64,000 nt of DNA. Source: an uncultured Bacteroidota bacterium. Its GTDB lineage: Bacteria > Bacteroidota > Bacteroidia > Bacteroidales > JAAUTT01. Location: the NCBI GenBank assembly GCA_963846585.1, contig CAWJWO010000002.1, positions 263,592 through 327,591 of the forward strand, read 5' to 3'. The notes under the pieces are model-generated. The model saw only the letters and a program-made list of their open reading frames with translations, was not told the DNA's origin and searched no databases. The position numbers and the translations under genes were made by a program. The first letter of the stretch is position 1, and each line of letters starts with the position of its first letter. This document shows, piece after piece, positions 11,758 to 24,940 of this stretch.

Positions 11758-11799
11758 ATGAGATATAGTTTACTGTTGTTGTTTCCACGCCTGGTCTAA
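11758..11799 (+). other. Candidate 13-codon Leu-rich leader ORF ending in the terminator loop
   Basis: ATG AGA TAT AGT TTA CTG TTG TTG TTT CCA CGC CTG GTC TAA translates to MRYSLLLLFPRLV*. The four consecutive Leu codons sit just before the terminator stem, and the stop codon (11797-11799) lies in its loop. Confidence 0.25.
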
Positions 11800-11814
11800 A
11801 CAGGCGTGGTTTTT
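11785..11814 (+). terminator. Orphan plus-strand intrinsic terminator in the 714-bp divergent spacer upstream of the liu block
   Basis: ccacgcctg-gtctaaa-caggcgtgg followed by ttttt: a 9-bp GC-rich stem, 7-nt loop and T5. No annotated plus-strand gene lies upstream. Confidence 0.6.
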
Positions 11815-12387: not shown

Positions 12388-13995
12388 ATGGAAACTATAA
12401 AATCAAACATAAATACTAAATCCAAAGATTATAATAACAATGTAACTGAATATAAAAAACTCCTTTCTGATTATTATCAGCTTTTGAAAGAAATTCAATC
12501 TGGCGGTGATAATCAGGCGATAGAAAAGCATAAATCGAGAAATAAATTATTAGCCAGGGAACGTATTAATTTATTGGTAGATAATAACACCCCATTCCTG
12601 GAACTTTCATGTTTTGCTTCATTTGGACAATATAACGGAAAATTCCCTTCAGCCGGGATAATAACTGGCATAGGACTGATACATGGCCGCGAAACAATTA
12701 TAGTGGCCAACGATTCCACCGTTAAAGGAGGAACATATATTAAGGAGACTATTCGAAAACATATACGCGCCCAGGAAATTGCACTTGAGAATAAGCTTCC
12801 TTGTATATACCTGGTTGATTCAGGCGGTATATTCCTTCCTGAACAGGCAAAAGTGTTTCCGGACAGGTTCGATTTCGGGAGGATATTCTATAATCAGGCA
12901 CATTTATCTGCTGAGGGTATTCCCCAGATTTCAATAGTCATGGGCTCCTGTACCGCCGGTGGTGCATATATACCTGCAATGAGCGACGAAACTATTATAG
13001 TACGCGGTCAGGGAACTATTTTTTTAGGGGGGCCTCCGCTGGTAAAAGCCGCTACAGGTGAAATTGTTACAGCCGAAGAACTGGGAGGAGCCGAAATACA
13101 TACCTTTTTTTCAGGAGTTGCTGATCATATGGCAGACAATGATCAGCATGCCATTGAAATTTGCCGTAATATTTTTGAGACATTGCCAAAACCGGAAAAG
13201 TTTAACATAGACAGAACAAATTACGAAGAACCGGCTTTCCCATCTGAAGAATTATATGGTATTGTAAATGTGGATTTACGCAAACCTGTGGATCCGAGAG
13301 AAATTATAGCAAGAATTGTAGATGGCAGCAAATTCGCAGAGTTTAAGAGTCTTTATGGAACAACCTTAGTGACCGGTTTCGCAAGAATCATGGGATATCC
13401 TGTAGGCATTGTTGCAAATAACGGGGTTCTGTTCTCAGAATCATCCCTTAAAGGTGCACACTTTGTTGAACTTTGTAATTTCCGAAAAATTCCAATTGTA
13501 TTTTTACAAAATATAACGGGGTTTATAGTTGGCAAACAATATGAAAAAGCTGGCATAGCTCGCGACGGGGCTAAATTTGTACATGCAGTGGCCACTGCAA
13601 CGGTACCTAAGTTTACTATTATTTGCGGAGGTTCTTTTGGTGCGGGGAATTATGCAATGTCCGGCAGAGCGTACGATCCTGCATTCCTGTTTATGTGGCC
13701 AAATGCAAAGATTTCGGTAATGGGTGGCGAGCAGGCAGCTAATGTACTTGTTACAGTAAAGGAGGATCAGTCAAAATCCTCAGGGAAAGCACACAATAAA
13801 GATGAGTTATTAAAATTACATAAAAAAATTATGTCCGGATATAATGAAGAAAGTTCAGCATATTACAGTTCTTCAAGATTATGGGACGATGGTATAATTG
13901 ATCCTGCTGAAACCCGTAAAATATTGGCCCTGTGTATAGAAATAACACTAAACCGTAAGTTCCCCGCTCCAAAAAGTGGAGTGTACAGAATGTAA
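12388..13995 (+). CDS. Methylcrotonyl-CoA carboxylase beta subunit (acyl-CoA carboxyltransferase)
   Basis: 535-aa ORF, collinear with the MCCC2/LiuB type: GGAYIPAMSDETIIVRGQGTIFLGGPPLVKAATGEIVTAEELGGAEIH and GFIVGKQYEKAGIARDGAKFV. Sits in a liu-type gene context. Confidence 0.9.
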   Translation: METIKSNINTKSKDYNNNVTEYKKLLSDYYQLLKEIQSGGDNQAIEKHKSRNKLLARERINLLVDNNTPFLELSCFASFGQYNGKFPSAGIITGIGLIHGRETIIVANDSTVKGGTYIKETIRKHIRAQEIALENKLPCIYLVDSGGIFLPEQAKVFPDRFDFGRIFYNQAHLSAEGIPQISIVMGSCTAGGAYIPAMSDETIIVRGQGTIFLGGPPLVKAATGEIVTAEELGGAEIHTFFSGVADHMADNDQHAIEICRNIFETLPKPEKFNIDRTNYEEPAFPSEELYGIVNVDLRKPVDPREIIARIVDGSKFAEFKSLYGTTLVTGFARIMGYPVGIVANNGVLFSESSLKGAHFVELCNFRKIPIVFLQNITGFIVGKQYEKAGIARDGAKFVHAVATATVPKFTIICGGSFGAGNYAMSGRAYDPAFLFMWPNAKISVMGGEQAANVLVTVKEDQSKSSGKAHNKDELLKLHKKIMSGYNEESSAYYSSSRLWDDGIIDPAETRKILALCIEITLNRKFPAPKSGVYRM

Positions 13996-14341
13996 AAGGA
14001 AAGTAGGCAGAGAATGGAAGAAGGCAGAAGCAGTGGGACATGAAAAGACATGAAAAGACGTGAGACGTGAGACGTGAAAAGAAGACAGAAGGCAGAAGAC
14101 AGAAAAAAGATAAAAGATTTAAGGAAAAAGATTTGAGATTTTAGAATCTAGATTTTAGAATTGAGATTTATAAATATCAATCTGGTAAAATATATTAAAT
14201 CTTAAATCACCAATCGCAAATCTGGAATCTTAAATCAAAGAGTCTTGGCTCATGGTTCTTGGCTCTTGGCTCTGTTTTTACAACCAACAACTAAGCACTA
14301 AGCACTAAGCACTAAGCACTAAGCACTAAGCACTATATAAA
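13996..14341 (+). repeat. Composite mosaic repeat element, copy A (fills the MCCase-beta / hydratase spacer)
   Basis: Module order: purine-rich GGCAGAAG units, (GACGTGA)x3 at 14057-14077, GAAGACAGAAGGCAGAAGACAG, AGATTT/GAGATTT-rich core, agtcttggctcatggttcttggctcttggctctg at 14241-14274, caaccaacaa, then (CTAAGCA)x6 at 14291-14336, then ATG. Collinear with the reverse complement of 34108-34396. Confidence 0.85.
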
Positions 14342-15127
14342 ATGGACACATTCGAAACAATCAAAGTTGAATTAAACGAAAAAGTCGCTACCATTTACCT
14401 AAACAGGCCTGAAATACATAATGCATTTAATCATAAAATGGTACTTGAGATAATTTCTGCACTAAAGTCTGTTGCAGATAATCAAAAACTAAGAGTTTTG
14501 GTAATTCGTGGCAATGGAAAATCTTTTTGTTCCGGGGCTGACTTAAACTGGATGAAGGAAGTTGTTGAATTCGATTTTGAAAAAAATTACAATGAAAGTC
14601 TGTTATTAGCTAATTGTTTCCAAACGATTTATCATTTCCCTGTACCGGTAATTTCTTTTGGACATGGCTCAGTAATTGGTGGCGGTAATGGATTTCTGGC
14701 TACCTCAGACTTTGCAATATGTACTAAAAATACTCATTTTGCATTTACTGAAGTAAATATCGGGTTGGTGCCGGCTGTAATTTCCTATTTTATTATCAGG
14801 CGTATGGGAATAAATAAAACTAAAGAATTAATGCTCTCCGGACAACAATTCAATGGAATTGAAGCTGAACATTGGGGGCTTGTAAATTATGCGATTGACG
14901 AGTCTGATACTGAGAATTTTATAAAATCCACTATCCAAAGATTAATTGAAAAAAGTCCACAGGCGTTAAAAAGAACAAAAAATTTACTTAATAACAATGA
15001 TTTATTATTCGATGAAAATGCATTTTTAAAAGAATCGGCAATTATAATTTCTCAGGCACGTGTTTCAAAGGATGGGCAGGAAGGAATGCGATCATTTTTA
15101 GAAAAAAGACGGCCGGTATGGGATTAG
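14342..15127 (+). CDS. Enoyl-CoA hydratase/isomerase family protein (methylglutaconyl-CoA hydratase by context)
   Basis: 261-aa crotonase fold: IYLNRPEIHNAFN, GNGKSFCSGADLNWM, FGHGSVIGGGNGF, EGMRSFLEKRRPVW. Lies between the two MCCase subunit genes. Confidence 0.85.
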   Translation: MDTFETIKVELNEKVATIYLNRPEIHNAFNHKMVLEIISALKSVADNQKLRVLVIRGNGKSFCSGADLNWMKEVVEFDFEKNYNESLLLANCFQTIYHFPVPVISFGHGSVIGGGNGFLATSDFAICTKNTHFAFTEVNIGLVPAVISYFIIRRMGINKTKELMLSGQQFNGIEAEHWGLVNYAIDESDTENFIKSTIQRLIEKSPQALKRTKNLLNNNDLLFDENAFLKESAIIISQARVSKDGQEGMRSFLEKRRPVWD

Positions 15128-15179
15128 AATGAACTAATCAGGCAAAGTCTTGTTCAGATGATGCCTATAGTATCCCAAA

Positions 15180-17174
15180 ATGTTAAATTTTAGTAAAATA
15201 TTAATAGCAAACCGGGGAGAAATTGCACGGAGAATAATTCGTACAGCCCGCGAAATGGACTACAAATGTGCAGTTATTTATTCTTCCGGGGAAATAAATG
15301 CTGATTTTGTATCCGAAGCTGATGAAGCATACGATTTAGGTAATGGCAACATTCATGAAACTTACCTCAATATAACAAAAATAATTGACATTGCCCTCAG
15401 AAACGGGATTCAGGCAATTCATCCCGGTTATGGCTTTTTATCTGAAAATTATAAGTTTGCAAAAGCTTGCGAAGAAAATAACATTGTATTTATTGGGCCA
15501 ACAAGTGAAAATATAAAATTGATGAGCCAAAAAACTGCAGCCCGTGAATTTGTAAAATCACTGGGAATTCCACTTTTGGAGTCAGTTCAGGGAAACAGTC
15601 CGGAAGAATTATTGAAAAAGTCAGGGAAACTTAAATATCCTGTTATAGTAAAGGCAGATACCGGTGGTGGTGGCAAAGGCATGCAAATAGTTAAAAAACC
15701 TGAAGAACTATCAAAAATACTTGAAATTTCCCAACGGGAAGCTTTGGCATATTTTGGTGATTCAAATGTTTATCTGGAAGAATATCTTGAATATCCCCGA
15801 CACATAGAAGTTCAGATATTAGGTGATTGTTATGGCAATATTATTCATCTTTACGAAAGGGAATGTACAATTCAAAGGAGACACCAAAAAATTATTGAAG
15901 AAGCTCCTTCTCTTTGCCTGTCAGATAATTTAAGAAATAAACTGTTGGAGGCATCCTTGACTATTGCCCGGAAAATGAAGTATTTGAATGCCGGAACAAT
16001 TGAGTTTTTGGTTGATGAAAATCAGAATTTCTATTTCCTCGAAATGAATACCAGAATTCAGGTCGAACATCCGGTTACTGAAAAAATTACGGGAATAGAC
16101 CTGGTCAGGGAACAACTGAATATTGCTTCCGGAAACCGGCTTAATTTTAAACAGGAAGATATTTCGGTCAATGGCCATGCTATAGAAAGCCGTATATATG
16201 CTGAAAACCCTTTTAATGAATTTTTGCCTTCAGTGGGATCAGTAATAAAATATCAGGAACCAACAGGCAGGTCTGTAAGAATTGATTCTGCATTATCAGG
16301 CCCTGCCCTGATATCTTCGGATTTTGACCCAATGATTGCCAAGGTAATCTCAGGTGATTTGAACAGGGAAAGCGCCAGGCTTAACCTTATCAGGTTTCTG
16401 CAGCAATATATTATACATGGAATTGATACAAATATTCCATATCTGATTGAGATTTTAAATAATCCAGGATTTATACAAAACTCATATTCAACATCATTTT
16501 GTAAAGATTCCAAAAATATGCTTCAGGCTTCGTATATTAAAAAAATGCATGGATTATCTATAGAACTTATAACTGCCGCTTTCCTGATTTTTACTTTCCC
16601 GTTTTTAATAAATCATGTCAATACAAATGATAACAGGGTATGGAAAAGTTTAGGATATTGGAGAAATATAATGGTTACAGAAATAAATATATTGGATGTC
16701 AATTATAACATAACATTTAAAAAGCAAGGCACAGATAACTTTACATTTTGTATTAATGAAAAAGTCCCGTTACTGGTGAAAGGCCGGGAAAAGAACGGAA
16801 GGGTAGATTTTTTATTCTCCGGTCAAAGACATGTAGCTTTTATTTCATCTTTAAGTGATATTTATTATTTATCTATTAATGGAAATACATATACAATCCG
16901 GCGTAATGATATCACAAAAACAAAATTTGTAAAAGAAAGCGGCCTGAATTCATTTAACCAACAAAACAAGATATTGGCCACCATAAATGGCAAGATTATA
17001 AAAATGAATGTAAAAATGAATGAAAAAGTAAACAAAGGAGATATATTAATGGTTGTTGAATCAATGAAAATGGAAAACTACATTCTTGCTCCTAAAGGGG
17101 GAAAAATCACTAATATTTGTGTTAACACAGGTGACCTGGTAAAAGGCAGGGATGTGTTGGCCATTTTAACGTAA
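15180..17174 (+). CDS. Methylcrotonyl-CoA carboxylase alpha subunit (biotin carboxylase + BCCP domain)
   Basis: 664-aa ORF. Biotin carboxylase N-terminus KILIANRGEIARRIIRT, ATP-grasp GGGGKGM, EMNTRIQVEHPVTE, and a C-terminal biotinyl-lysine motif VESMKMEN. Confidence 0.9.
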   Translation: MLNFSKILIANRGEIARRIIRTAREMDYKCAVIYSSGEINADFVSEADEAYDLGNGNIHETYLNITKIIDIALRNGIQAIHPGYGFLSENYKFAKACEENNIVFIGPTSENIKLMSQKTAAREFVKSLGIPLLESVQGNSPEELLKKSGKLKYPVIVKADTGGGGKGMQIVKKPEELSKILEISQREALAYFGDSNVYLEEYLEYPRHIEVQILGDCYGNIIHLYERECTIQRRHQKIIEEAPSLCLSDNLRNKLLEASLTIARKMKYLNAGTIEFLVDENQNFYFLEMNTRIQVEHPVTEKITGIDLVREQLNIASGNRLNFKQEDISVNGHAIESRIYAENPFNEFLPSVGSVIKYQEPTGRSVRIDSALSGPALISSDFDPMIAKVISGDLNRESARLNLIRFLQQYIIHGIDTNIPYLIEILNNPGFIQNSYSTSFCKDSKNMLQASYIKKMHGLSIELITAAFLIFTFPFLINHVNTNDNRVWKSLGYWRNIMVTEINILDVNYNITFKKQGTDNFTFCINEKVPLLVKGREKNGRVDFLFSGQRHVAFISSLSDIYYLSINGNTYTIRRNDITKTKFVKESGLNSFNQQNKILATINGKIIKMNVKMNEKVNKGDILMVVESMKMENYILAPKGGKITNICVNTGDLVKGRDVLAILT

Positions 17175-17178
17175 AAAA

Positions 17179-17357
17179 GTGCTTAGTGCTTAGTGCAAAG
17201 TGCATAGTACAGCAATATGCCGGCATTAAAAGCCTTCAAAAAATAACGTGCTAAAATAGTGAATTTAATATTATAAAAACAAGTCACATAAGAAGATTAT
17301 ACAACATTACAACATTACAACATTACAACATTACAACATTTACAACTTTACAACATT
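17179..17357 (+). repeat. TAGTGCW array (17179-17210) and (ACAACATT)n array (17301-17357)
   Basis: gtgcttagtgcttagtgcaaagtgcatagtac starts 5 nt after the MCCase-alpha stop. acaacatt x5 followed by tacaactttacaacatt lies 43 nt upstream of the ACAD start. Confidence 0.9.
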
Positions 17358-17399
17358 AAAATTTTTATAATATAATATATATTAATACACCCCTTATAT

Positions 17400-18545
17400 A
17401 TGGATATTTATTCAAATGGTGCTCATGAGACGTTAAGACAAAAAGTTAAAAATTTTGCTGAAAATGAAGTTCGGCCCAAGGCACGTGAACTGGATGAAAA
17501 AGAACAATTTTCTCCTGAATTGAGCCTTAGAATGGGTGAACTGGGGTTATTCGGGCTTACAATTCCAAAAAAATACGGGGGACAGGGATATGATTATCTT
17601 TCATTAATTATAGCTGTGGAAGAACTTGCCAGGGTGGATAGCTCCCAGGCAGCCATTTTAGCCTCACATAATTCGCTTGGTATTGGTCCAATATATAATT
17701 ACGGAACTGAGGAACAACGCAAAAAGTATTTACCACAACTTTGTAATGGAAAAGCACTTTGGGCCTTTGGACTTACTGAAAACAATGCCGGATCAGATTC
17801 CCGCAGTACCGAATCCATCGCCTTATTAGATAACGATCATTGGATTATAAACGGAACAAAGATTTTTATTTCCAACGCTTCTGCACCAATTTCGGCTGGC
17901 GTTACTATCCAGGTAATTACTGGCCAAAACGATGGGCAAAAAGAGCTTTCCACAATTATTGTTGAACAGGGAACAAAGGGATATCGTGCCGAAAAAATTC
18001 ATGGAAAAATGATGTGGCGCGCCATCGATACTGCACGTTTGTATTTCGATAATGTAATTGTTCCTAAAGATAATTTATTGGGAGGATTAGGCAAAGGATC
18101 GGGGATTATGCTTGAAACTTTAGATTCAGGCAGATTATCAATAGCAGCTATGGGACTCGGTTTAGCAACCGGAGCCTTCGAAATGGCTATGAATTATTCA
18201 CATAAACGATGGCAATTTGGAAAACCTATTGCCAAATTTCAATCTATTGGCTTCAAATTAGCAGATATGGCTACCAAAATAGAACTGGCAAGAAATATAC
18301 TTTATAAAGCATGCTGGCTTAAAGATTCTAACCAACCTTTTGCAAAAGAAGCTGCCATGGCAAAACTATATTGTTCCGAAATTGCAAAAGAAATTGCTGA
18401 TGAATCACTTCAAATACATGGAGCCTATGGACTAATGCGCGAATACGATATTGAACGGTTTTACCGCGATCAAAGATTATTGCAAATTGGTGAAGGTACT
18501 TCAGAAATACTGAGAATAGTTATATCAAAACATCTTGGAATATAG
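17400..18545 (+). CDS. Acyl-CoA dehydrogenase (isovaleryl-CoA dehydrogenase-like by context)
   Basis: 381-aa ORF with ACAD motifs: WAFGLTENNAGSD, QFGKPIAKFQ, ERFYRDQRLLQIGEGTSEI. Substrate cannot be assigned from sequence alone. Confidence 0.85.
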   Translation: MDIYSNGAHETLRQKVKNFAENEVRPKARELDEKEQFSPELSLRMGELGLFGLTIPKKYGGQGYDYLSLIIAVEELARVDSSQAAILASHNSLGIGPIYNYGTEEQRKKYLPQLCNGKALWAFGLTENNAGSDSRSTESIALLDNDHWIINGTKIFISNASAPISAGVTIQVITGQNDGQKELSTIIVEQGTKGYRAEKIHGKMMWRAIDTARLYFDNVIVPKDNLLGGLGKGSGIMLETLDSGRLSIAAMGLGLATGAFEMAMNYSHKRWQFGKPIAKFQSIGFKLADMATKIELARNILYKACWLKDSNQPFAKEAAMAKLYCSEIAKEIADESLQIHGAYGLMREYDIERFYRDQRLLQIGEGTSEILRIVISKHLGI

Positions 18546-18549
18546 AATT

Positions 18550-18580
18550 TAGTGCATAGTGCTTAGTGCATAGTGCTTAG
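18550..18580 (+). repeat. TAGTGCW heptamer array
   Basis: tagtgcatagtgcttagtgcatagtgcttag, 5 nt after the ACAD stop. Confidence 0.9.
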
Positions 18581-18848
18581 GAGTAAGAGATTAGTATATT
18601 TATAAATTTTAAAACATTTTAATAGACTTGTAACTTGAAACCAGTAACTATTTACATACTACTTACTAATGCGAATTAAGAGTTAAAATATTTATACTTA
18701 TTATCTAATAATTAGCAGAATATCATTTACATTAGCCAACTTTAACCCCAACCCCTTAAAAAGCATAGCCGTCAGGTTATGTCTATATAGAGCAGAATGA
18801 TAGATATTTAGTGTAAATGTAATAAAATATTAGTGTAATTAAGAGCGT

Positions 18849-19337
18849 ATGTCAACGACTGGATTTGTATATATTATGACCAATAAGAACAAAACAACTT
18901 TATATATTGGGGTTACAAACAATTTATGCAGAAGAATACATGAGCATAAAAATCATTTGATAAATGACACTTTTACAGATAAGTACAATATTGAATACTG
19001 TATTTATTACGAAGAATTTCAATATTTTGATTTGGCAATACAAAGAGAAAAAGAATTAAAAAAGTGGAACCGTCAAAAGTTTATTTCGAGTGACGCGAGA
19101 AAACTCAAGATTAACAAAAAGAACCCCGAATGGAAAGTGCTGGTAACAGAGCGTGGCTTTGTTCGGAATAATAAATCATTTTCTCAACATGTTTCGGACA
19201 TAGTCAATGAATTACAACCAATTAAAGAGATTCCTCCCTGCGGTCGGAATGACGACCAGCAGAATTGTGGCGTTGCTGGAGGTGAAGAGAGTGCGGCAAA
19301 GCCGCACTCTCTTCACCTCCAGCTCTCTGACCAATAA
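18849..19337 (+). CDS. GIY-YIG nuclease family protein (COG2827-like) with atypical C-terminal extension
   Basis: N-terminal GFVYIMTNKNKTTLYIGVTNNLCRRIHEH...YYEEF...AIQREKELKKWNR is the GIY-YIG core. The last roughly 60 codons run through a GC-rich hairpin region and are probably not a native domain. A 9-codon in-frame insert (ISSDARKLK, about 19082-19108) overlaps a repeat-motif copy at 19080-19106. Confidence 0.75.
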   Translation: MSTTGFVYIMTNKNKTTLYIGVTNNLCRRIHEHKNHLINDTFTDKYNIEYCIYYEEFQYFDLAIQREKELKKWNRQKFISSDARKLKINKKNPEWKVLVTERGFVRNNKSFSQHVSDIVNELQPIKEIPPCGRNDDQQNCGVAGGEESAAKPHSLHLQLSDQ

Positions 19338-19369
19338 CGACAGTCATTTCGAGCGAAGCGAGAAATCTC
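19227..19369 (+). other. GC-rich compound stem-loop region at the 3-prime end of the GIY-YIG ORF
   Basis: The outer 27-nt arms 19227-19253 (gagattcctccctgcggtcggaatgac) and 19343-19369 (gtcatttcgagcgaagcgagaaatctc) are 22/27 complementary. They enclose a 6-bp hairpin (19256-19279) and a perfect 23-bp stem (19275-19323). Confidence 0.6.
19275..19323 (+). other. Perfect 23-bp inverted repeat with a 3-nt loop
   Basis: gctggaggtgaagagagtgcggc-aaa-gccgcactctcttcacctccagc read directly. GC-rich, inside an AT-rich locus. Confidence 0.9.
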
Positions 19370-19514
19370 AAATAAAGTATTATAATTGTATATAAGCATT
19401 TTACAAGCGTTAACCTGACGGCTATGCCTTTTTAAGGGGTTGGGGTTAAAAAATACTAAAATGAATAAATATTGTCTTGAATAATTATAACAATAATTAA
19501 ATCCTTAATTCGCA

Positions 19515-19535
19515 TTACGACTTACGACTTACGAC
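19515..19535 (+). repeat. (TTACGAC)x3 array
   Basis: ttacgacttacgacttacgac ends 7 nt before the fni ATG. The same unit occurs at 12305-12318 and 61692-61705. Confidence 0.9.
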
Positions 19536-19542
19536 TAAATTT

Positions 19543-20535
19543 ATGAATGATAGAAAAAAGGACCATATTGAACTGGCTTTGCAAGCTCAAACCTGCAAAA
19601 ATGAATTAGATATCAGGTTTGACTATGAACCATTATTGGCTGCTCATCCTAAAGGTGGGTTACCTTCATTTAATTTTCTTGGAAAAACTTTCCGTGCTCC
19701 TTTATGGGTATCCAGCATGACAGGTGGAACGAAAACAGCTGCTAATATTAACAGAAACCTCGCCATGTCATGTAAAGAATTCGGTTTCGGGATGGGTCTG
19801 GGTTCCTGTCGTGTACTTATTGACAATGATGATTATTTTGGAGATTTTAACGTTCGTGATATTATTGGCGATGATTTGCCTTTGTTTGCCAACCTGGGAA
19901 TTTGCCAGGTTGAACAACTTATTGAGAACGGAAAAACAGAAAAAATCATAAGATTGCGTGAAAAGCTGCGGGCAGACGGGTTAATAATACATGTTAATCC
20001 ATTGCAGGAATGGTATCAAAAAGAAGGAGATAAATTAAAATATCCTCCAATTGAGACAATTAAAAAATTGATTGACAAAACAGATATGCCTCTGATTGTT
20101 AAAGAAGTAGGTCAAGGTATAGGCCCGGCAAGCCTCAGTGCTTTATTTAAATTGCCACTTGCAGCAATTGAATTTGCCGCATTTGGAGGAACTAATTTCT
20201 CGAAACTTGAACTTATGCGTAATTCTTCGCAATTGAATGAAATTTTTGAACCTCTTACGAAAGTTGGAATGGATGCATTTCAAATGCTTGAAATTGTCAA
20301 TAATATTGTCAATACAGAAAAAAATCCCGGGTGTAATCAAATTATTATTAGTGGCGGGATTAACTCATTTTTAGACGGGTATTACCTGGTACAAAAGTCA
20401 CTTTTACAGGCTGTTTATGGACAGGCATCTTCAATGCTAAAATATGCTAAGGAAGATTATGTACAATTGCAATCTTATATTTCTCAACAAATCAAAGGGC
20501 TGGAGATAGCTTATGCCTTTTTACGAATAAAGTAA
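19543..20535 (+). CDS. fni: Type 2 isopentenyl-diphosphate delta-isomerase (FMN-dependent)
   Basis: 330-aa ORF: RKKDHIELAL, PLWVSSMTGGT, IVKEVGQGIGP, AAFGGTNF, typical of IDI-2. Confidence 0.9.
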   Translation: MNDRKKDHIELALQAQTCKNELDIRFDYEPLLAAHPKGGLPSFNFLGKTFRAPLWVSSMTGGTKTAANINRNLAMSCKEFGFGMGLGSCRVLIDNDDYFGDFNVRDIIGDDLPLFANLGICQVEQLIENGKTEKIIRLREKLRADGLIIHVNPLQEWYQKEGDKLKYPPIETIKKLIDKTDMPLIVKEVGQGIGPASLSALFKLPLAAIEFAAFGGTNFSKLELMRNSSQLNEIFEPLTKVGMDAFQMLEIVNNIVNTEKNPGCNQIIISGGINSFLDGYYLVQKSLLQAVYGQASSMLKYAKEDYVQLQSYISQQIKGLEIAYAFLRIK

Positions 20536-20554
20536 TTGAATTAAATTCATTTAC

Positions 20555-21862
20555 ATGCAAAGAAATATTGTAAACGGTTTCTCAAAGCTAACCAAGGAAG
20601 AAAAAATTGAATCCTTATCAGGTATCCTTAACTTGCCAATGCTTAATGAAAAATTAAAATCATTCTGGCATAATACAAATCAGCAACTTTTCGATGAGTT
20701 TAGCGAAAATTCAATCTCCAACTATTATTTGCCCTATAGTATTGCTCCAAATTTCCTGATTAATGAAACTATCTGCCATATACCTATGGTAACTGAAGAA
20801 AGTTCAGTTGTTGCTGCAGCTGCAGCTGCAGCTAAATTTTGGTTTCATAATGGAGGTTTTAAGGCTGATGTTATATCTATGCAAAAATCCGGCCATGTAC
20901 ACTTTATTCTTTCTGGTGATAAACAAATTTTGTTTAACCATTGGACAATGCTTAAAAACGTGTTCCATCAAAACATAAAATCCATTAATTCCAATATGAT
21001 AAAACGGGGAGGCGGCGTGTTGGATATCAGTCTTGAAGATTGTACCTCATTGCTGAAAGATTATTGCCAGATATCGGTAACTTTTGATACGGTCGACTCA
21101 ATGGGTGCTAATTATATAAATTCTATTCTGGAACAAATAGCTTTAACCCTGTGCAATTATTGTTCTGAGAATTTATTAAATCAGGTACATTGTCAGGTGA
21201 TAATGTCAATACTTTCTAATTATACTCCAAATTGTAAAGTAATATGCAAAGTTGAAGCTCCCGTTTCAGTTTTTAATAAAAACGAAATGGGTATATCCAC
21301 TGCAGGATTTATCGAAAAATTCTTAATTGCCATTCGTATAGCGGAATCGGATATATACAGATGTGTAACTCACAACAAAGGAATAATGAATGGCATAGAT
21401 GCAGTTTTATTAGCTACCGGCAACGATTTTAGAGCCGTTGAAGCCGATGTACACGCTTATGCATCACGAACCGGTAAATATTCATCATTATCATTTGCTG
21501 ATGTGGAGGATGGTATATTTAAGTTTAATTTAGAATTGCCAATGAATATAGGTGTTATCGGAGGTGCGACTTCCCTTCATCCTTTAGCCGCCTTGTCACT
21601 TGAAATTCTTGGAAATCCTGATGCCAGACAATTAATGATGATTATTGCTGCAGCAGGTTTGGCTACTCATTTCTCAGCAATAAAAGCTTTGGTTACTGAA
21701 GGGATTCAGAATGGCCATATGAAAATGCACATAATTAATATATTACATCAAATGCATGCAACCGAAGAGGAGAAAAAAGAAGTTTATAAATGGTTCGAAA
21801 ACAAAACAATTACTTTTAATGAAGTTATCGAACTATTGAATAACCTTCGAAAGAATATATAA
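20555..21862 (+). CDS. Hydroxymethylglutaryl-CoA reductase, class II
   Basis: 435-aa ORF: ENSISNYYLPYSIAPNFLIN...IPMVTEESSVVAAAAAAAKFW, DSMGANYINS, HNKGIMNGIDAVLLATGNDFRAVEA, and the GHMKMH C-terminal motif. Confidence 0.9.
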   Translation: MQRNIVNGFSKLTKEEKIESLSGILNLPMLNEKLKSFWHNTNQQLFDEFSENSISNYYLPYSIAPNFLINETICHIPMVTEESSVVAAAAAAAKFWFHNGGFKADVISMQKSGHVHFILSGDKQILFNHWTMLKNVFHQNIKSINSNMIKRGGGVLDISLEDCTSLLKDYCQISVTFDTVDSMGANYINSILEQIALTLCNYCSENLLNQVHCQVIMSILSNYTPNCKVICKVEAPVSVFNKNEMGISTAGFIEKFLIAIRIAESDIYRCVTHNKGIMNGIDAVLLATGNDFRAVEADVHAYASRTGKYSSLSFADVEDGIFKFNLELPMNIGVIGGATSLHPLAALSLEILGNPDARQLMMIIAAAGLATHFSAIKALVTEGIQNGHMKMHIINILHQMHATEEEKKEVYKWFENKTITFNEVIELLNNLRKNI

Positions 21863-21875
21863 CTCATATTGTTTA

Positions 21876-22811
21876 GTGATAATTTCCGCCAAATCATATT
21901 ATTCCAATGGAAAACTCCTGTTAACCGGTGAATATCTTGTAATGTACGGCGCTAAAGCGTTGGCAATTCCTGTAAAATTTGGTCAATCAATTAGTATTAC
22001 TGAACATTCCGGAGATAATAAATTGGTTTGGGTAGCTAAAGAATATGGAAAAAATTGGTTTAAAGCAGTTTTTTCTTCCAAAACGCTTACTGTTGAAGAA
22101 TATTCAGATATACAAATTGTAAAACGTTTGCAGAAGATTATAAATGAGGCAAAATTATTAAACCAACAATTTATTAAAGAAGATTCCGGTTATTTGATTG
22201 AAACAAATTTAAACTTTAACAGATACTGGGGGTTGGGTACAAGTTCAACATTAATATCCAATATTGCCCTTTGGGCAAATATTGATCCATTTTGGCTTAA
22301 CCGGAAAGTTTCAAATGGATCAGGTTACGATATTGCCTGTGCTGAATCGGCATCATCAATTATTTATCAACTCAATAAACAAATTCCTGTCATTAAAAAT
22401 GTCTCTTTTAATCCAATATTCAGGGACAAAATATATTTTATATACCTTGAGAAAAAACAAGATTCCGCTGCCAGTATAGAAATCTTAAATCAAAAACAAT
22501 CATTATTTTTAAAAGAAATAAAACAAATATCTGACCTGACGGAAAAGTTTTTAAATGCCGGCTCAATTGAAGAAGTTATCCCTGTTATTAAGGCTCATGA
22601 AACAATCATCAGTTCACTATTAAATATCCCTGCTATTCAAAATACATTATTCCCGGATTTTACAGGTATAATAAAATCTCTTGGTGCCTGGGGCGGAGAT
22701 TTTATTATGGCAATTTCTTCAATGAATAAAAATTCGGTTGAACAATACTTCAGGGATAAGGGTTTCCCTGTAATAATACCTTTTGACGAAATGGTACTGA
22801 ATAGTGCTTAG
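21876..22811 (+). CDS. GYDIA-family GHMP kinase (putative phosphomevalonate kinase of the Bacteroidota MVA pathway)
   Basis: 311-aa ORF with GTG start. GKLLLTGEYLVMYGAKALAIPV, GHMP motif GLGTSSTLISN, and the signature GSGYDIACA. The last two codons and the stop lie inside the TAGTGC repeat array. Confidence 0.7.
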   Translation: MIISAKSYYSNGKLLLTGEYLVMYGAKALAIPVKFGQSISITEHSGDNKLVWVAKEYGKNWFKAVFSSKTLTVEEYSDIQIVKRLQKIINEAKLLNQQFIKEDSGYLIETNLNFNRYWGLGTSSTLISNIALWANIDPFWLNRKVSNGSGYDIACAESASSIIYQLNKQIPVIKNVSFNPIFRDKIYFIYLEKKQDSAASIEILNQKQSLFLKEIKQISDLTEKFLNAGSIEEVIPVIKAHETIISSLLNIPAIQNTLFPDFTGIIKSLGAWGGDFIMAISSMNKNSVEQYFRDKGFPVIIPFDEMVLNSA

Positions 22812-22867
22812 TGCATAGTGCATAGTGCATAGTGCTTAATGATTAGTGCTAAATGATTAGTGCTTAG
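22802..22867 (+). repeat. TAGTGCW heptamer array (about 9 units, degenerate at the distal end)
   Basis: tagtgcttagtgcatagtgcatagtgcatagtgcttaatgattagtgctaaatgattagtgcttag. Contains the stop codon of the GYDIA kinase gene. Confidence 0.9.
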
Positions 22868-22901
22868 AACATATTATTTATATATATTAGTTAACAACAT
22901 T

Positions 22902-23990
22902 ATGAGCTTAATGTCAGCTAAATCTGTTAAATACTCCTATTTGCCAAAAGAAAGTACAGGCAAGGTTACATGGCGATGCCCTTCAAACATAGCCCTTATT
23001 AAATATTGGGGGAAACAGGAACAGCAGTTGCCCTTAAACCCTTCCTTAAGTTTCACATTAAATAATTCTTACACCGAAACATCTGTTGAATATGAATATA
23101 TTGAAGATTCTGCAGCACCTCGGATACATTTTATTTCGGATGATATAGATGGCTATTTATTTGAAAAAAGAGTTAAAGAATTTATTAAAAGCCTTATTAT
23201 AGATATTCCTGTTTTGCAAAAGATGAATCTGATTATCCATTCGAAAAATAATTTTCCACATTCTGCAGGCATTGCATCATCTGCTTCAGCTTTTGGTTCA
23301 TTAGCCTTATGTTTATGTTACATAGAAAACCTTGTGACAGGATCACTTAACGGATCAATGGATTTTTTCCGGAAAGCTTCATATATTTCCAGATTAGGTT
23401 CAGGCAGCGCATGCAGGTCTATATATGGAGGTTTTGTAAGTTGGGGGTCAATTGAAGAATATCCTGAATTTTCAAATTTATTTGCCCAACCTCTTCCGTT
23501 TGAAATACATCCTGTCTTTAAAGGTACACATGACACTATATTAATTGTTTCCTCTAAGAAGAAAAAACTTTCAAGCAGCGCCGGACACAATTTAATGGTA
23601 AAACATCCATACGCTTATGGCCGGTATGAGCAGGCTAAACAAAATTATGTATTATTATTAAAGTCGTTACAAAATGGTGACATGGTTAACTTTATAAAAA
23701 TTGTTGAAAATGAGGCCCTCAGCCTACATGCACTTTTGTTTTCTTCTGAAGGTGGGCATATTTTATTAAAACCGGAAAGCATAATGATAATTGATAAAAT
23801 TGTTAATTTCCGGATGGCATCGGATATTCCTGTATGTTTTACTATAGATGCCGGCCCAAATTTACATATAATTTATCCCCTGAAATATAAAGATAAGGTT
23901 TCAGCATTTATTCAATCTGAACTATTAATTTATTGTGAAAATTCAAAATACATTGATGACCAAATAGGAAACGGCCCTGTAAAACTATGA
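22902..23990 (+). CDS. mvaD: Diphosphomevalonate decarboxylase
   Basis: PSNIALIKYWGK, NFPHSAGIASSASAF, LGSGSACRSIYGGFVSW, FTIDAGPNLHI. The track start at 22860 (GTG) lies inside the repeat array, so the ATG at 22902 is more plausible. Confidence 0.9.
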   Translation: MSLMSAKSVKYSYLPKESTGKVTWRCPSNIALIKYWGKQEQQLPLNPSLSFTLNNSYTETSVEYEYIEDSAAPRIHFISDDIDGYLFEKRVKEFIKSLIIDIPVLQKMNLIIHSKNNFPHSAGIASSASAFGSLALCLCYIENLVTGSLNGSMDFFRKASYISRLGSGSACRSIYGGFVSWGSIEEYPEFSNLFAQPLPFEIHPVFKGTHDTILIVSSKKKKLSSSAGHNLMVKHPYAYGRYEQAKQNYVLLLKSLQNGDMVNFIKIVENEALSLHALLFSSEGGHILLKPESIMIIDKIVNFRMASDIPVCFTIDAGPNLHIIYPLKYKDKVSAFIQSELLIYCENSKYIDDQIGNGPVKL

Positions 23991-24940
23991 GGAAATTTTC
24001 TGAGGTTTATCCTAAATTGCTTTTGCTGGGTGAATATAGCATCCTGCTGGGAGGGAATGCCTTAACATTGCCTTTGAGAATATTTAATGCACAATTTGAT
24101 TTTTTAATTAAGGCAAATGATACAGAGGCAGCCATAAGATCGAATAGAATTTTAAAAAATTTTTTAAAATTCATTCGTGGCAATGAATTAATTATTAATA
24201 ATATAAATTTTACTCGCCTTGCCAGTGATATCAATAATGGTTTATATGTAAAATCCAATATTCCGACCGGATACGGGCTTGGCAGCTCCGGATCAGTATG
24301 TGCCGCAATTTTGAAATCATATTCTAAAATTAAATTACCTGCTAAAATATCTCAAATTGAAACATTCAGAATAAAGTCAATTTTAGCCTCAATGGAATCG
24401 TTTTTTCATGGAATAAGTTCAGGAATAGATCCTTTAGCCTGTTATTTCAACTGTTCAATTCTTATAAAAGATACATCAATTGCAAGCCTGCATAATTTGT
24501 GTTTGCCAAAAACCCATATGTTTTTACTTGATTCGGATATTCAAAGAAATAGCCAGTTATTGATAGAAACCTTTACCGATGATTATAAGGATCAGGAATA
24601 TAAAATGTCCTTTAATAAAGACTACATTCCATATGTTAACAGTTTAATTGATACAATTATTGATTTTAATTATAATAAAAAGTATGATCATATTAAGAAC
24701 CGTAATAACTATTATAATTTATGGGAAGGCCTGTCTATTCTTCAATTTAAATTCTTTAATAAAATGATCCCTGATAATATACTGCCTTTATGGGAATCAG
24801 GATTAAATTCAGGTTTGTATTTTCTTAAATTACTGGGTGCTGGAGGTGGTGGTTACTTTTTAGGATTTACCAATAATAAAATTAAAACCGAAACATTCCT
24901 GGCTAATAATGGCTATAAGTTAATATGGCCGGAATTATGA
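23987..24940 (+). CDS. mvk: Mevalonate kinase (Bacteroidota-type GHMP kinase)
   Basis: 317-aa ORF overlapping the upstream stop (ATGA coupling). KLLLLGEYSILLGGNALTLP, GHMP motif PTGYGLGSSGSVCAA, C-terminal LGAGGGGYFLGF. Confidence 0.7.
   Translation: MRKFSEVYPKLLLLGEYSILLGGNALTLPLRIFNAQFDFLIKANDTEAAIRSNRILKNFLKFIRGNELIINNINFTRLASDINNGLYVKSNIPTGYGLGSSGSVCAAILKSYSKIKLPAKISQIETFRIKSILASMESFFHGISSGIDPLACYFNCSILIKDTSIASLHNLCLPKTHMFLLDSDIQRNSQLLIETFTDDYKDQEYKMSFNKDYIPYVNSLIDTIIDFNYNKKYDHIKNRNNYYNLWEGLSILQFKFFNKMIPDNILPLWESGLNSGLYFLKLLGAGGGGYFLGFTNNKIKTETFLANNGYKLIWPEL

Follow-up and report, generated by a model that had tools for sequence, protein, structure and literature searches.

Leucine-degradation genes joined to mevalonate-pathway genes suggest a leucine-to-isoprenoid route in a Bacteroidales bacterium

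The 64,000-nucleotide stretch of a Bacteroidales genome analyzed here (the window) contains nine genes in which a block of leucine/isovalerate utilization (liu) type runs into mevalonate-pathway genes, the two meeting at HMG-CoA. The nine genes probably act as a single anabolic unit leading from isovaleryl-CoA to IPP and DMAPP. The bacterium most likely builds isoprenoid units directly from the carbon skeleton of leucine, because the liu enzymes are joined to mevalonate genes that start at HMG-CoA and no other recognizable route to HMG-CoA is encoded.

All nine genes are located on the plus strand. The order given in the original prediction was recovered, with the open reading frames at the expected coordinates and the families assigned by profile search. 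The run is broken solely by a multicopy GIY-YIG mobile element. The start of the mevalonate kinase (MK) gene overlaps the end of the diphosphomevalonate decarboxylase (MDD) gene by 4 nt, and no intrinsic terminator is predicted on the plus strand in the interior of the cluster, except for a repeat artifact inside the coding sequence of the HMG-CoA reductase.

Table. Features of the nine-gene cluster and the inserted element (positions in the window)
Feature	Position	Strand	Length and supporting matches
3-Methylcrotonyl-CoA carboxylase (MCC) beta (carboxyltransferase)	12388..13995	+	535 aa; PF01039 500 bits
Crotonase, putative 3-methylglutaconyl-CoA hydratase	14342..15127	+	261 aa; PF00378
3-Methylcrotonyl-CoA carboxylase alpha (biotin carboxylase + BCCP)	15180..17174	+	664 aa; Biotin_carb_N, CPSase_L_D2, Biotin_carb_C, Biotin_lipoyl
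Acyl-CoA dehydrogenase (ACAD), putative isovaleryl-CoA dehydrogenase, Bcd/SCAD type	17400..18545	+	381 aa; three ACAD domains
Mobile element, non-pathway	18664..19517	+	GIY-YIG ORF 18849-19337, PF01541; in ACAD/IDI-2 spacer
Type 2 isopentenyl-diphosphate isomerase (IDI-2)	19543..20535	+	330 aa; TIGR02151 191 bits (cut-off 281)
Class II HMG-CoA reductase (HMGR)	20555..21862	+	435 aa; TIGR00532 261 bits (cut-off 260, passed); PF00368 278 bits
GYDIA-family GHMP kinase, putative phosphomevalonate kinase (PMK)	21876..22811	+	311 aa; NF040656 363 bits (above cut-off)
Diphosphomevalonate decarboxylase (MDD)	22860..23990	+	376 aa; TIGR01240 156 bits (cut-off 171); PF22700, PF18376
Mevalonate kinase (MK)	23987..24940	+	317 aa; TIGR00549 61 bits (under cut-off); PF00288

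In the proposed pathway, either leucine or 2-ketoisocaproate made de novo would give isovaleryl-CoA via a BCKDH-type complex, and the ACAD would oxidize it to 3-methylcrotonyl-CoA. MCC alpha and beta would then form 3-methylglutaconyl-CoA at the expense of ATP, and hydration by the crotonase would give HMG-CoA. The reductase would convert HMG-CoA to mevalonate, from which MK, the GYDIA kinase (as PMK), and MDD would lead to IPP, with IDI-2 yielding DMAPP. The liu block would here stand in for thiolase and HMG-CoA synthase (HMGS) as the "upper" mevalonate pathway.

The carboxyltransferase shows its best PDB matches with MCC-beta chains (672 to 691 bits, e.g., human 8j4z with 679 and Pseudomonas aeruginosa 3u9r with 672), compared to 448 bits with GCC-beta and 286 bits or less with PCC-beta. 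The best full-length PDB match of the alpha subunit is human MCC-alpha, 8j4z_E, covering residues 3 to 651. By these matches, the carboxylase is a complete, two-subunit, ATP-dependent MCC. The top NCBIfam models of the crotonase are gamma-carboxy-enoyl-CoA hydratase types (NF004227 with 220 bits and NF005675 with 203 bits, both under cut-off), the first of them the gamma-carboxygeranoyl-CoA hydratase of the AtuE type, and the protein also matches the AtuE-like hydratase 4zu2 in the PDB. Together with an AtuA-family gene situated inside the block in 12 other related loci, these matches could speak for a module degrading acyclic terpenes of the geranyl-CoA type that merely neighbors isoprenoid synthesis. 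Such a role is highly improbable given the clear preference of the carboxyltransferase for MCC-beta over GCC-beta; moreover, tblastn finds no AtuA in the source genome, and a beta-oxidation set to finish terpenes is missing: the genome encodes no thiolase and just two ACADs and two crotonases, MenB being one of the latter. For the leucine module, the position of the crotonase between MCC-beta and MCC-alpha, which is kept in more than 50 loci, suggests a function as 3-methylglutaconyl-CoA hydratase. The original prediction placed the ACAD at the isovaleryl-CoA dehydrogenase (IVD) step. Its membership in the ACAD family stands, but it differs in type from the canonical IVDs: it scores ∼350 bits against Bcd/SCAD-type structures compared to 212 to 232 bits against canonical IVDs and carries its catalytic Glu at the MCAD-type position, within a GEG motif. 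Its putative action on isovaleryl-CoA is assigned from context.

Among the mevalonate enzymes, MK, MDD, and IDI-2 all score under their NCBIfam cut-offs, yet each matches its own family alone, and the PDB matches of IDI-2 are IDI-2 enzymes only. The model recognizing the GYDIA kinase is labeled "hypothetical equivalog," and a PDB search gave no relative of this protein. The MVK and PMVK of Bacteroidetes were not identified until 2017 (PMC6107057); this statement and the position of the gene suggest that the GYDIA kinase acts as the PMK.

The absence of HMG-CoA lyase (HMGL), HMGS, and thiolase, originally noted for the window, extends to the whole genome (4.07 Mb, 98.5% complete), in which neither synthase nor lyase is encoded elsewhere, within the reach of homology searches, which are blind to nonhomologous versions of these two enzymes. 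The whole genome contains no match to bacterial or archaeal HMGS (profiles including TIGR01835 and PF08540), to thiolase (PF00108 and PF02803), or to the AibA/B-type CoA-transferase (PF01144). For HMGL, no NF004283 match above the cut-off was found in the genome, and tblastn with Bacteroidota HMGL at an E value of 1e-3 returned nothing. Two weak HMGS matches are true FabH, and five HMGL-like Pfam matches represent LeuA, a CimA-like synthase, a homocitrate-synthase-like protein, OadA/5S, and a DmpG-like aldolase. Since no other recognizable source or sink of HMG-CoA is present in the genome, no recognizable enzyme but HMGR would consume the liu-block product, and the reductase substrate has no recognizable source besides the liu block. 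The supply side is encoded by a fused E1 alpha/beta 2-oxoacid dehydrogenase of the BCKDH type, EtfBA, and LeuA.

The original prediction considered both a leucine shunt and the reverse route, of which the forward direction is strongly supported by these absences, the synteny, and the exchange of the lyase for mevalonate genes described below. The iso-C15 lipids of Bacteroidota require isovaleryl-CoA as a primer, and the Bcd-type enzymes that the ACAD resembles are able to act as enoyl-CoA reductases, as a flow from HMG-CoA via 3-methylglutaconyl-CoA and 3-methylcrotonyl-CoA to isovaleryl-CoA for the priming of iso-branched fatty acids would demand. The known model for such a flow is the alternative isovaleryl-CoA pathway of Myxococcus xanthus, comprising MvaS, LiuC, AibA/B, and AibC. 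It shares the intermediates HMG-CoA and 3-methylglutaconyl-CoA and a LiuC-like hydratase with the source cluster but runs in the direction opposite to the one proposed here, and its MvaS and AibA/B are missing from the source genome. Reverse flux is barely credible in this bacterium, which has no HMGS or thiolase to make HMG-CoA, no AibA/B-type CoA-transferase/decarboxylase, and a complete ATP-dependent MCC. Isovaleryl-CoA is already provided by the BCKDH-type E1 and LeuA, and MK, MDD, and IDI-2 make sense only toward IPP.

The adjacency of the two gene groups is not unique to the source genome. The nine-gene order is found, compact and cassette-free, in nine other genomes (G197, L025-L027, L034, L044, L047, L055, and L063), with the MK position kept in 9 of the 10 fused loci. 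The G197 locus contains the nine genes in identical order at 34 to 59% amino acid identity and with a GC content of 52% versus 34%; MCC-beta shows 59% identity to its G197 orthologue and 71 to 73% to those of L025-L027. The only genes conserved across the fused loci are the nine pathway genes. The fused loci group together in a single clade (SH-aLRT of 99), and the state changes only once. Both HMGL and HMGS are absent from all 10 fused genomes, which represent one evolutionary event and not independent replicates, compared to the presence of HMGL in 11 of 18 unfused genomes, mostly adjoining the ACAD.

The ACAD/IDI-2 spacer of the source genome has a length of 997 bp and holds the mobile element, which contains a 23-bp GC hairpin. 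At least 14 further copies of the element (90 to 99% amino acid identity) are located on six other contigs, sharing a DNA span of about 18664 to 19517 in window positions. None of the nine other fused loci carries it, and there the junction measures about 35 nt or less (9 to 13 nt in L025-L027). Comparison of the loci identifies the cassette as a later insertion into an ancestral junction of 9 to 35 nt, so that the adjacency predates the cassette. In the source genome, the cluster is presumably cotranscribed as a whole, although the enlarged spacer and its element might uncouple the transcription of its two halves there.

Separate transcription would fit two groups of genes that are neighbors by chance, with a catabolic liu block served by an unrecognized lyase or other sink and mevalonate genes fed by an unrecognized nonhomologous HMGS. 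Such enzymes would escape homology searches, and a nonhomologous HMGCS is raised as one possibility for Flavobacterium (PMC12016392). Co-occurrence alone is uninformative, as MCC-beta-like genes are near-universal (176 of 201 genomes of the class). Chance is nevertheless an unlikely explanation in view of the short junction in all other fused loci, the order held at such low identity, and the contrast in lyase content between fused and unfused genomes. Within the order to which the source belongs, HMGR and MCC-beta are either both present (G000 and G197) or both absent (five genomes), and the source genome has no thiolase or CoA-transferase to use acetoacetate, the product of the lyase.

The joint function of the two halves also agrees with the organization of related loci. 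P. aeruginosa liuRABCDE is an example of a liu cluster. The liu pathway has HMGL as its last step and a LiuA/IVD-like ACAD, in contrast to the Bcd/SCAD-like ACAD of the source cluster, which has five mevalonate-pathway genes in the lyase slot within a genome devoid of the lyase. In the liu operons of Bacteroidota (28 unfused related loci with MCC-beta, crotonase, MCC-alpha, ACAD, and HMGL), the first four genes have the same order as in the source cluster, MCC-beta and ACAD are 60 to 80% identical to the source proteins, and HMGL directly adjoins the ACAD. This placement of HMGL and the AtuA gene inside the block in the 12 loci mentioned above indicate that the four-gene block yields HMG-CoA and that its sink module is exchangeable. 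By locus comparison, the mevalonate genes occupy the operon slot that HMGL fills in relatives; they thus appear to be a third, mutually exclusive sink, and HMG-CoA would be reduced instead of cleaved.

The genome also carries Dxs, Dxr, and IspG of the MEP pathway, which the original prediction did not foresee; ispH appears frameshifted in the source assembly. The MEP pathway is retained in all of the fused genomes, with IspH intact in most, in contrast to the 32 other HMGR-positive genomes of the class sample, all of which are without IspG. The leucine route would therefore be dispensable in principle and is probably a second source of IPP, unless the ispH frameshift is real. In that case, every isoprenoid of the source genome, including menaquinone and undecaprenyl phosphate, would come from the leucine skeleton. 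A stricter proposal, that this lineage has no "upper mevalonate pathway" other than the liu block and that HMG-CoA arises solely by carboxylation of leucine-derived 3-methylcrotonyl-CoA and never from acetyl-CoA, is possible but rather doubtful.

The textbook mevalonate pathway begins at acetyl-CoA via thiolase and HMGS. Classical bacterial mevalonate clusters, including the GYDIA type of Flavobacteriales, have class II HMGR, MK, a GHMP kinase in the PMK position, MDD, and IDI-2 in common with the source cluster. They differ in containing thiolase and HMGS, whereas the source genome has neither and its mevalonate genes are physically joined to liu genes. A leucine-to-mevalonate shunt occurs in myxobacteria. 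It is also described for trypanosomatids (PMC5993337) and, in the work of Yamauchi (2010) as cited in PMC9201399, for Halobacterium salinarum and is proposed for Calditenuis archaea (PMC12979851). Its chemistry, from isovaleryl-CoA through 3-methylcrotonyl-CoA, 3-methylglutaconyl-CoA, and HMG-CoA to mevalonate, matches that predicted for the source operon. In those organisms the shunt supplements an HMGS-containing pathway; the source genome lacks the synthase, and its predicted shunt is, at the level of the genes, hard-wired in one operon.

Mevalonate genes without HMGS are known from Flavobacterium (PMC12016392) and Legionella (PMC13001223), where the gap was left open. The operon offers a concrete, testable answer, a lyase-less leucine module wired to HMGR. 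The HMG-CoA source of mevalonate-only Flavobacteriales without HMGS (∼23 of 32 sampled) may follow the same logic, which may also hold for Legionella (PMC13001223). The loci illustrate a clean module swap in evolution, in which one HMG-CoA-producing block is combined with three alternative sinks (HMGL, AtuA, or mevalonate genes). The operon would also represent a compact natural blueprint for producing isoprenoid units out of branched-chain amino acids or isovalerate while bypassing acetyl-CoA. The reading of isotopes and lipid biomarkers would be affected as well, since the isoprenoids and iso-fatty acids of such Bacteroidota would draw on one precursor pool.

The cluster at positions 12388 to 24940 of the window contains ten plus-strand open reading frames (ORFs), which were identified by NCBIfam and Pfam profiles (see the table below). 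ORF calls and profile identities bear out the predicted order of nine genes on one strand, in which a leucine-catabolic block, the liu block, comprising both subunits of 3-methylcrotonyl-CoA carboxylase (MCC), a crotonase, and an acyl-CoA dehydrogenase (ACAD), leads into five mevalonate genes. The carboxyltransferase scores 672 to 691 bits against solved structures of MCC beta, compared to 448 bits with geranyl-CoA carboxylase and at most 286 bits with propionyl-CoA carboxylases, and the best full-length structural match of the alpha subunit is MCC alpha. The structural matches of the type 2 IPP isomerase (IDI-2) are exclusively IDI-2 enzymes. Two assignments are weaker: the crotonase falls into the gamma-carboxy-enoyl-CoA hydratase group with scores under the cutoffs, and the ACAD reaches ∼350 bits with Bcd/SCAD, compared to 212 to 232 bits with canonical isovaleryl-CoA dehydrogenases. 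The catalytic glutamate of this ACAD is in the MCAD-type position.

ORFs of the leucine-mevalonate cluster and their positions in the window
Feature	Position	Strand	Basis
Carboxyltransferase (MCC-beta)	12388-13995	+	NCBIfam/Pfam
Crotonase	14342-15127	+	NCBIfam/Pfam
Biotin carboxylase fused to BCCP (MCC-alpha)	15180-17174	+	NCBIfam/Pfam
Acyl-CoA dehydrogenase (ACAD)	17400-18545	+	NCBIfam/Pfam
GIY-YIG protein	18849-19337	+	NCBIfam/Pfam
Type 2 IPP isomerase (IDI-2)	19543-20535	+	NCBIfam/Pfam
Class II HMG-CoA reductase (HMGR)	20555-21862	+	Exceeds TIGR00532 cutoff
GYDIA-family GHMP kinase	21876-22811	+	Exceeds its family cutoff
Diphosphomevalonate decarboxylase (MDD)	22860-23990	+	NCBIfam/Pfam
Mevalonate kinase (MK)	23987-24940	+	NCBIfam/Pfam

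The original prediction noted a lack of HMG-CoA synthase (HMGS), HMG-CoA lyase (HMGL), and thiolase in the window; profile and tblastn searches extend this lack to the whole genome, an assembly of 4.07 Mb on 20 contigs with 98.5% completeness. Neither bacterial nor archaeal HMGS was found in this genome, where the profile models give only two weak matches, and neither of the two thiolase domains was found. The weak HMGS/thiolase matches, on contigs C7 and C19, are true FabH proteins, one of them adjoining plsX. No HMGL match in the genome reaches the cutoff in the profile search, and tblastn with a query from a related Bacteroidota locus returned nothing at an E value of 1e-3; five HMGL-like Pfam matches are LeuA, a CimA-like synthase, a homocitrate-synthase-like protein, an OadA/5S subunit, and a DmpG-like aldolase. 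These genome-wide absences leave HMGR as the sole recognizable consumer of HMG-CoA and the liu block as its sole recognizable producer. On the supply side, the genome encodes EtfBA, LeuA, and a 2-oxoacid dehydrogenase with fused E1 alpha/beta, a type that serves branched-chain keto acids in Bacteroidota.

The same searches bear on two other interpretations of the block. An Atu-like terpene degradation module is disfavored by the carboxyltransferase scores, which favor MCC over geranyl-CoA carboxylase, and by the absence from the genome of both AtuA, for which no match was found, and β-oxidation; there are only two ACADs and two crotonases, MenB being one of the latter, and the genome therefore lacks β-oxidation. 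The originally proposed alternative of a reverse, myxobacterial-type flow from HMG-CoA to isovaleryl-CoA is not supported either. Its entry enzyme, HMGS, is missing, as is the decarboxylase AibA/B (no CoA-transferase of this type was found in the genome), the ATP-dependent carboxylase would have to work backwards, and MK, MDD, and IDI-2 make sense only in the direction of IPP.

The adjacency of liu and mevalonate genes is not restricted to one genome, which had been a concern. Genome G197, from another family of the same order, carries the nine genes in identical order as a compact string with protein identities of 34 to 59%; its locus has ∼52% GC, compared to 34% in the window, and contains no GIY-YIG gene. 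When species-representative genomes were searched with the ACAD as the query, 80 loci were returned; these show the four-gene liu block to be common across Bacteroidota. In eight more loci (L025 to L027, L034, L044, L047, L055, and L063), the block runs directly into IDI-2, HMGR, the GYDIA kinase, MDD, and MK, with IDI-2 missing from L047 and MCC-beta missing from L044. Conservation among the fused loci is confined to the nine operon genes. Intergenic gaps from ACAD through MK measure 2 to 10 nt in L025, and gene spacing in the operons of relatives is 2 to 50 nt, compared to unusually long spacers with repeat-like fill in the window (346 bp at 13996 to 14341, 225 bp at 17175 to 17399, and 997 bp at 18546 to 19542). 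A tree of ACAD and MCC-beta covered the window plus eight other fused loci, with L044 left out for its lack of MCC-beta; these nine fused rows form one clade with an SH-aLRT value of 99 and a single state change, which points to one old fusion event retained across deep divergence. The fused genomes are not independent replicates.

In the window's order, HMGR occurs in two genomes, the same two that contain MCC-beta, and five others contain neither. Although MCC-beta is present in 34/34 HMGR-positive genomes of the class sample, this class-wide co-occurrence was dropped as evidence because 176/201 class members have MCC-beta, and it was kept only within the order. A partly fused arrangement is seen in Ancylomarina salipaludis (G223), where a second paralogue of ACAD, sharing 67% identity with the window ACAD, lies directly upstream of IDI-2, HMGR, the GYDIA kinase, MDD, and MK (L108:5733-12244, on contig C55), with the MCC genes and another ACAD copy located elsewhere (L090).

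The GIY-YIG ORF sits on an element of ∼850 bp (roughly positions 18664 to 19517), of which at least 14 copies with 90 to 99% amino acid identity are found on six other contigs (C1, C7, C10, C11, C17, and C18). So many near-identical copies indicate an actively spreading mobile element, which here is a recent insertion into an ancestrally short operon junction. The junction being short and cassette-free ancestrally, the suggestion that the cassette had created the adjacency falls away. Within the cluster, no canonical terminator was predicted on the plus strand, but a 23-bp GC hairpin lies within the element, and the insertion may uncouple transcription of the two halves of the cluster. Upstream of the operon, at positions 11758 to 11809, a 13-codon mini-ORF contains four consecutive leucine codons, and its end falls within the loop of a hairpin predicted as a strong terminator on the plus strand. 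Its role as a leucine attenuator was rejected, as it lies 580 nt upstream of MCC-beta and has no conserved counterpart in front of the operon at 14 related loci.

HMGL and HMGS were likewise not found in eight additional fused genomes and, with the window's genome and G197, are absent in 10/10. HMGL is present in 11 of the 18 genomes with an unfused liu block and, by tblastn, directly adjoins ACAD in 28 loci, the slot occupied by the mevalonate genes in fused loci. An AtuA-family gene (PF07287) is positioned between MCC-alpha and ACAD in 7/7 unfused genomes without HMGL. It is found in 12 loci (L053, L067, L070, L072, L077, L083, L086, L090, L094, L096, L098, and L104; e.g., L090:8114-9907), and the AtuA-bearing blocks are exactly those in HMGL-less genomes, belonging to Marinifilaceae, Reichenbachiella, and some Cyclobacteriaceae. 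AtuA may be a nonhomologous stand-in for the lyase step. The block therefore has three mutually exclusive partners, the lyase, AtuA, and the mevalonate genes, a pattern that supports the view that the block truly makes HMG-CoA and that this would be reduced to mevalonate, not cleaved, in the window's lineage. A chance adjacency of two operons, with nonhomologous enzymes handling HMG-CoA, is improbable; it leaves unexplained the conserved tight junction, the absence of HMGL and HMGS in every fused genome, and the swap at the lyase position. The forward reading first proposed, from leucine and isovaleryl-CoA via HMG-CoA to IPP, is well supported by comparative genomics and is probably correct. 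Many unfused blocks also contain an acetate/butyrate-kinase-like gene after ACAD or HMGL (L090:11198-12283 and 12 other loci), which may serve isovalerate activation; in the window's genome, the only match to it is weak.

The window's genome has intact Dxs, Dxr, and IspG; IspG is present in 26/26 related genomes tested, and IspH is intact in 11/13 genomes tested. These intact MEP genes suggest that the liu-mevalonate operon would normally be a second route to IPP. An apparent 1-nt deletion outside a homopolymer breaks the ispH gene of the window's genome (C19:37801-38657; L020:893-1749, minus strand) into two frames ('...THGEPESTYS*', then 'LIQKTNNIYFDGTCP...'). The gene is thus either a genuine pseudogene or the product of an assembly error; the metagenome-assembled genome G204 likewise has a split ispH. 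Should the frameshift be genuine, IPP in the window's genome could come only from the shunt, making the mevalonate route essential. IspG was not found in 32 HMGR-positive genomes of other orders (class sample, G009 to G198). Only 9 of these 32 mevalonate-only genomes have a recognizable HMGS, matching the gaps reported for Flavobacterium, with mevalonate genes but no HMGS (PMC12016392), and Legionella (PMC13001223). One of the sampled genomes, G141, contains a weak, possibly divergent HMGS-like ORF adjoining a thiolase-like ORF. MCC-beta and thiolases are present in all 32 genomes and an HMGL-like gene is present in 31; because of their HMGL and thiolases, an extension of the shunt explanation to these genomes is hypothetical.

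Leucine-to-mevalonate shunt chemistry is known in myxobacteria. It is established in trypanosomatids (PMC5993337) and, as cited in PMC9201399, in Halobacterium, and has been proposed for Calditenuis (PMC12979851). In contrast to these shunts, the route described here would be hard-wired as an operon, with HMGS replaced rather than supplemented. No description of a liu-mevalonate operon in Bacteroidota was found in the full-text literature (open-access papers and preprints). The finding makes the source of HMG-CoA in bacteria with mevalonate genes but without the synthase directly testable.
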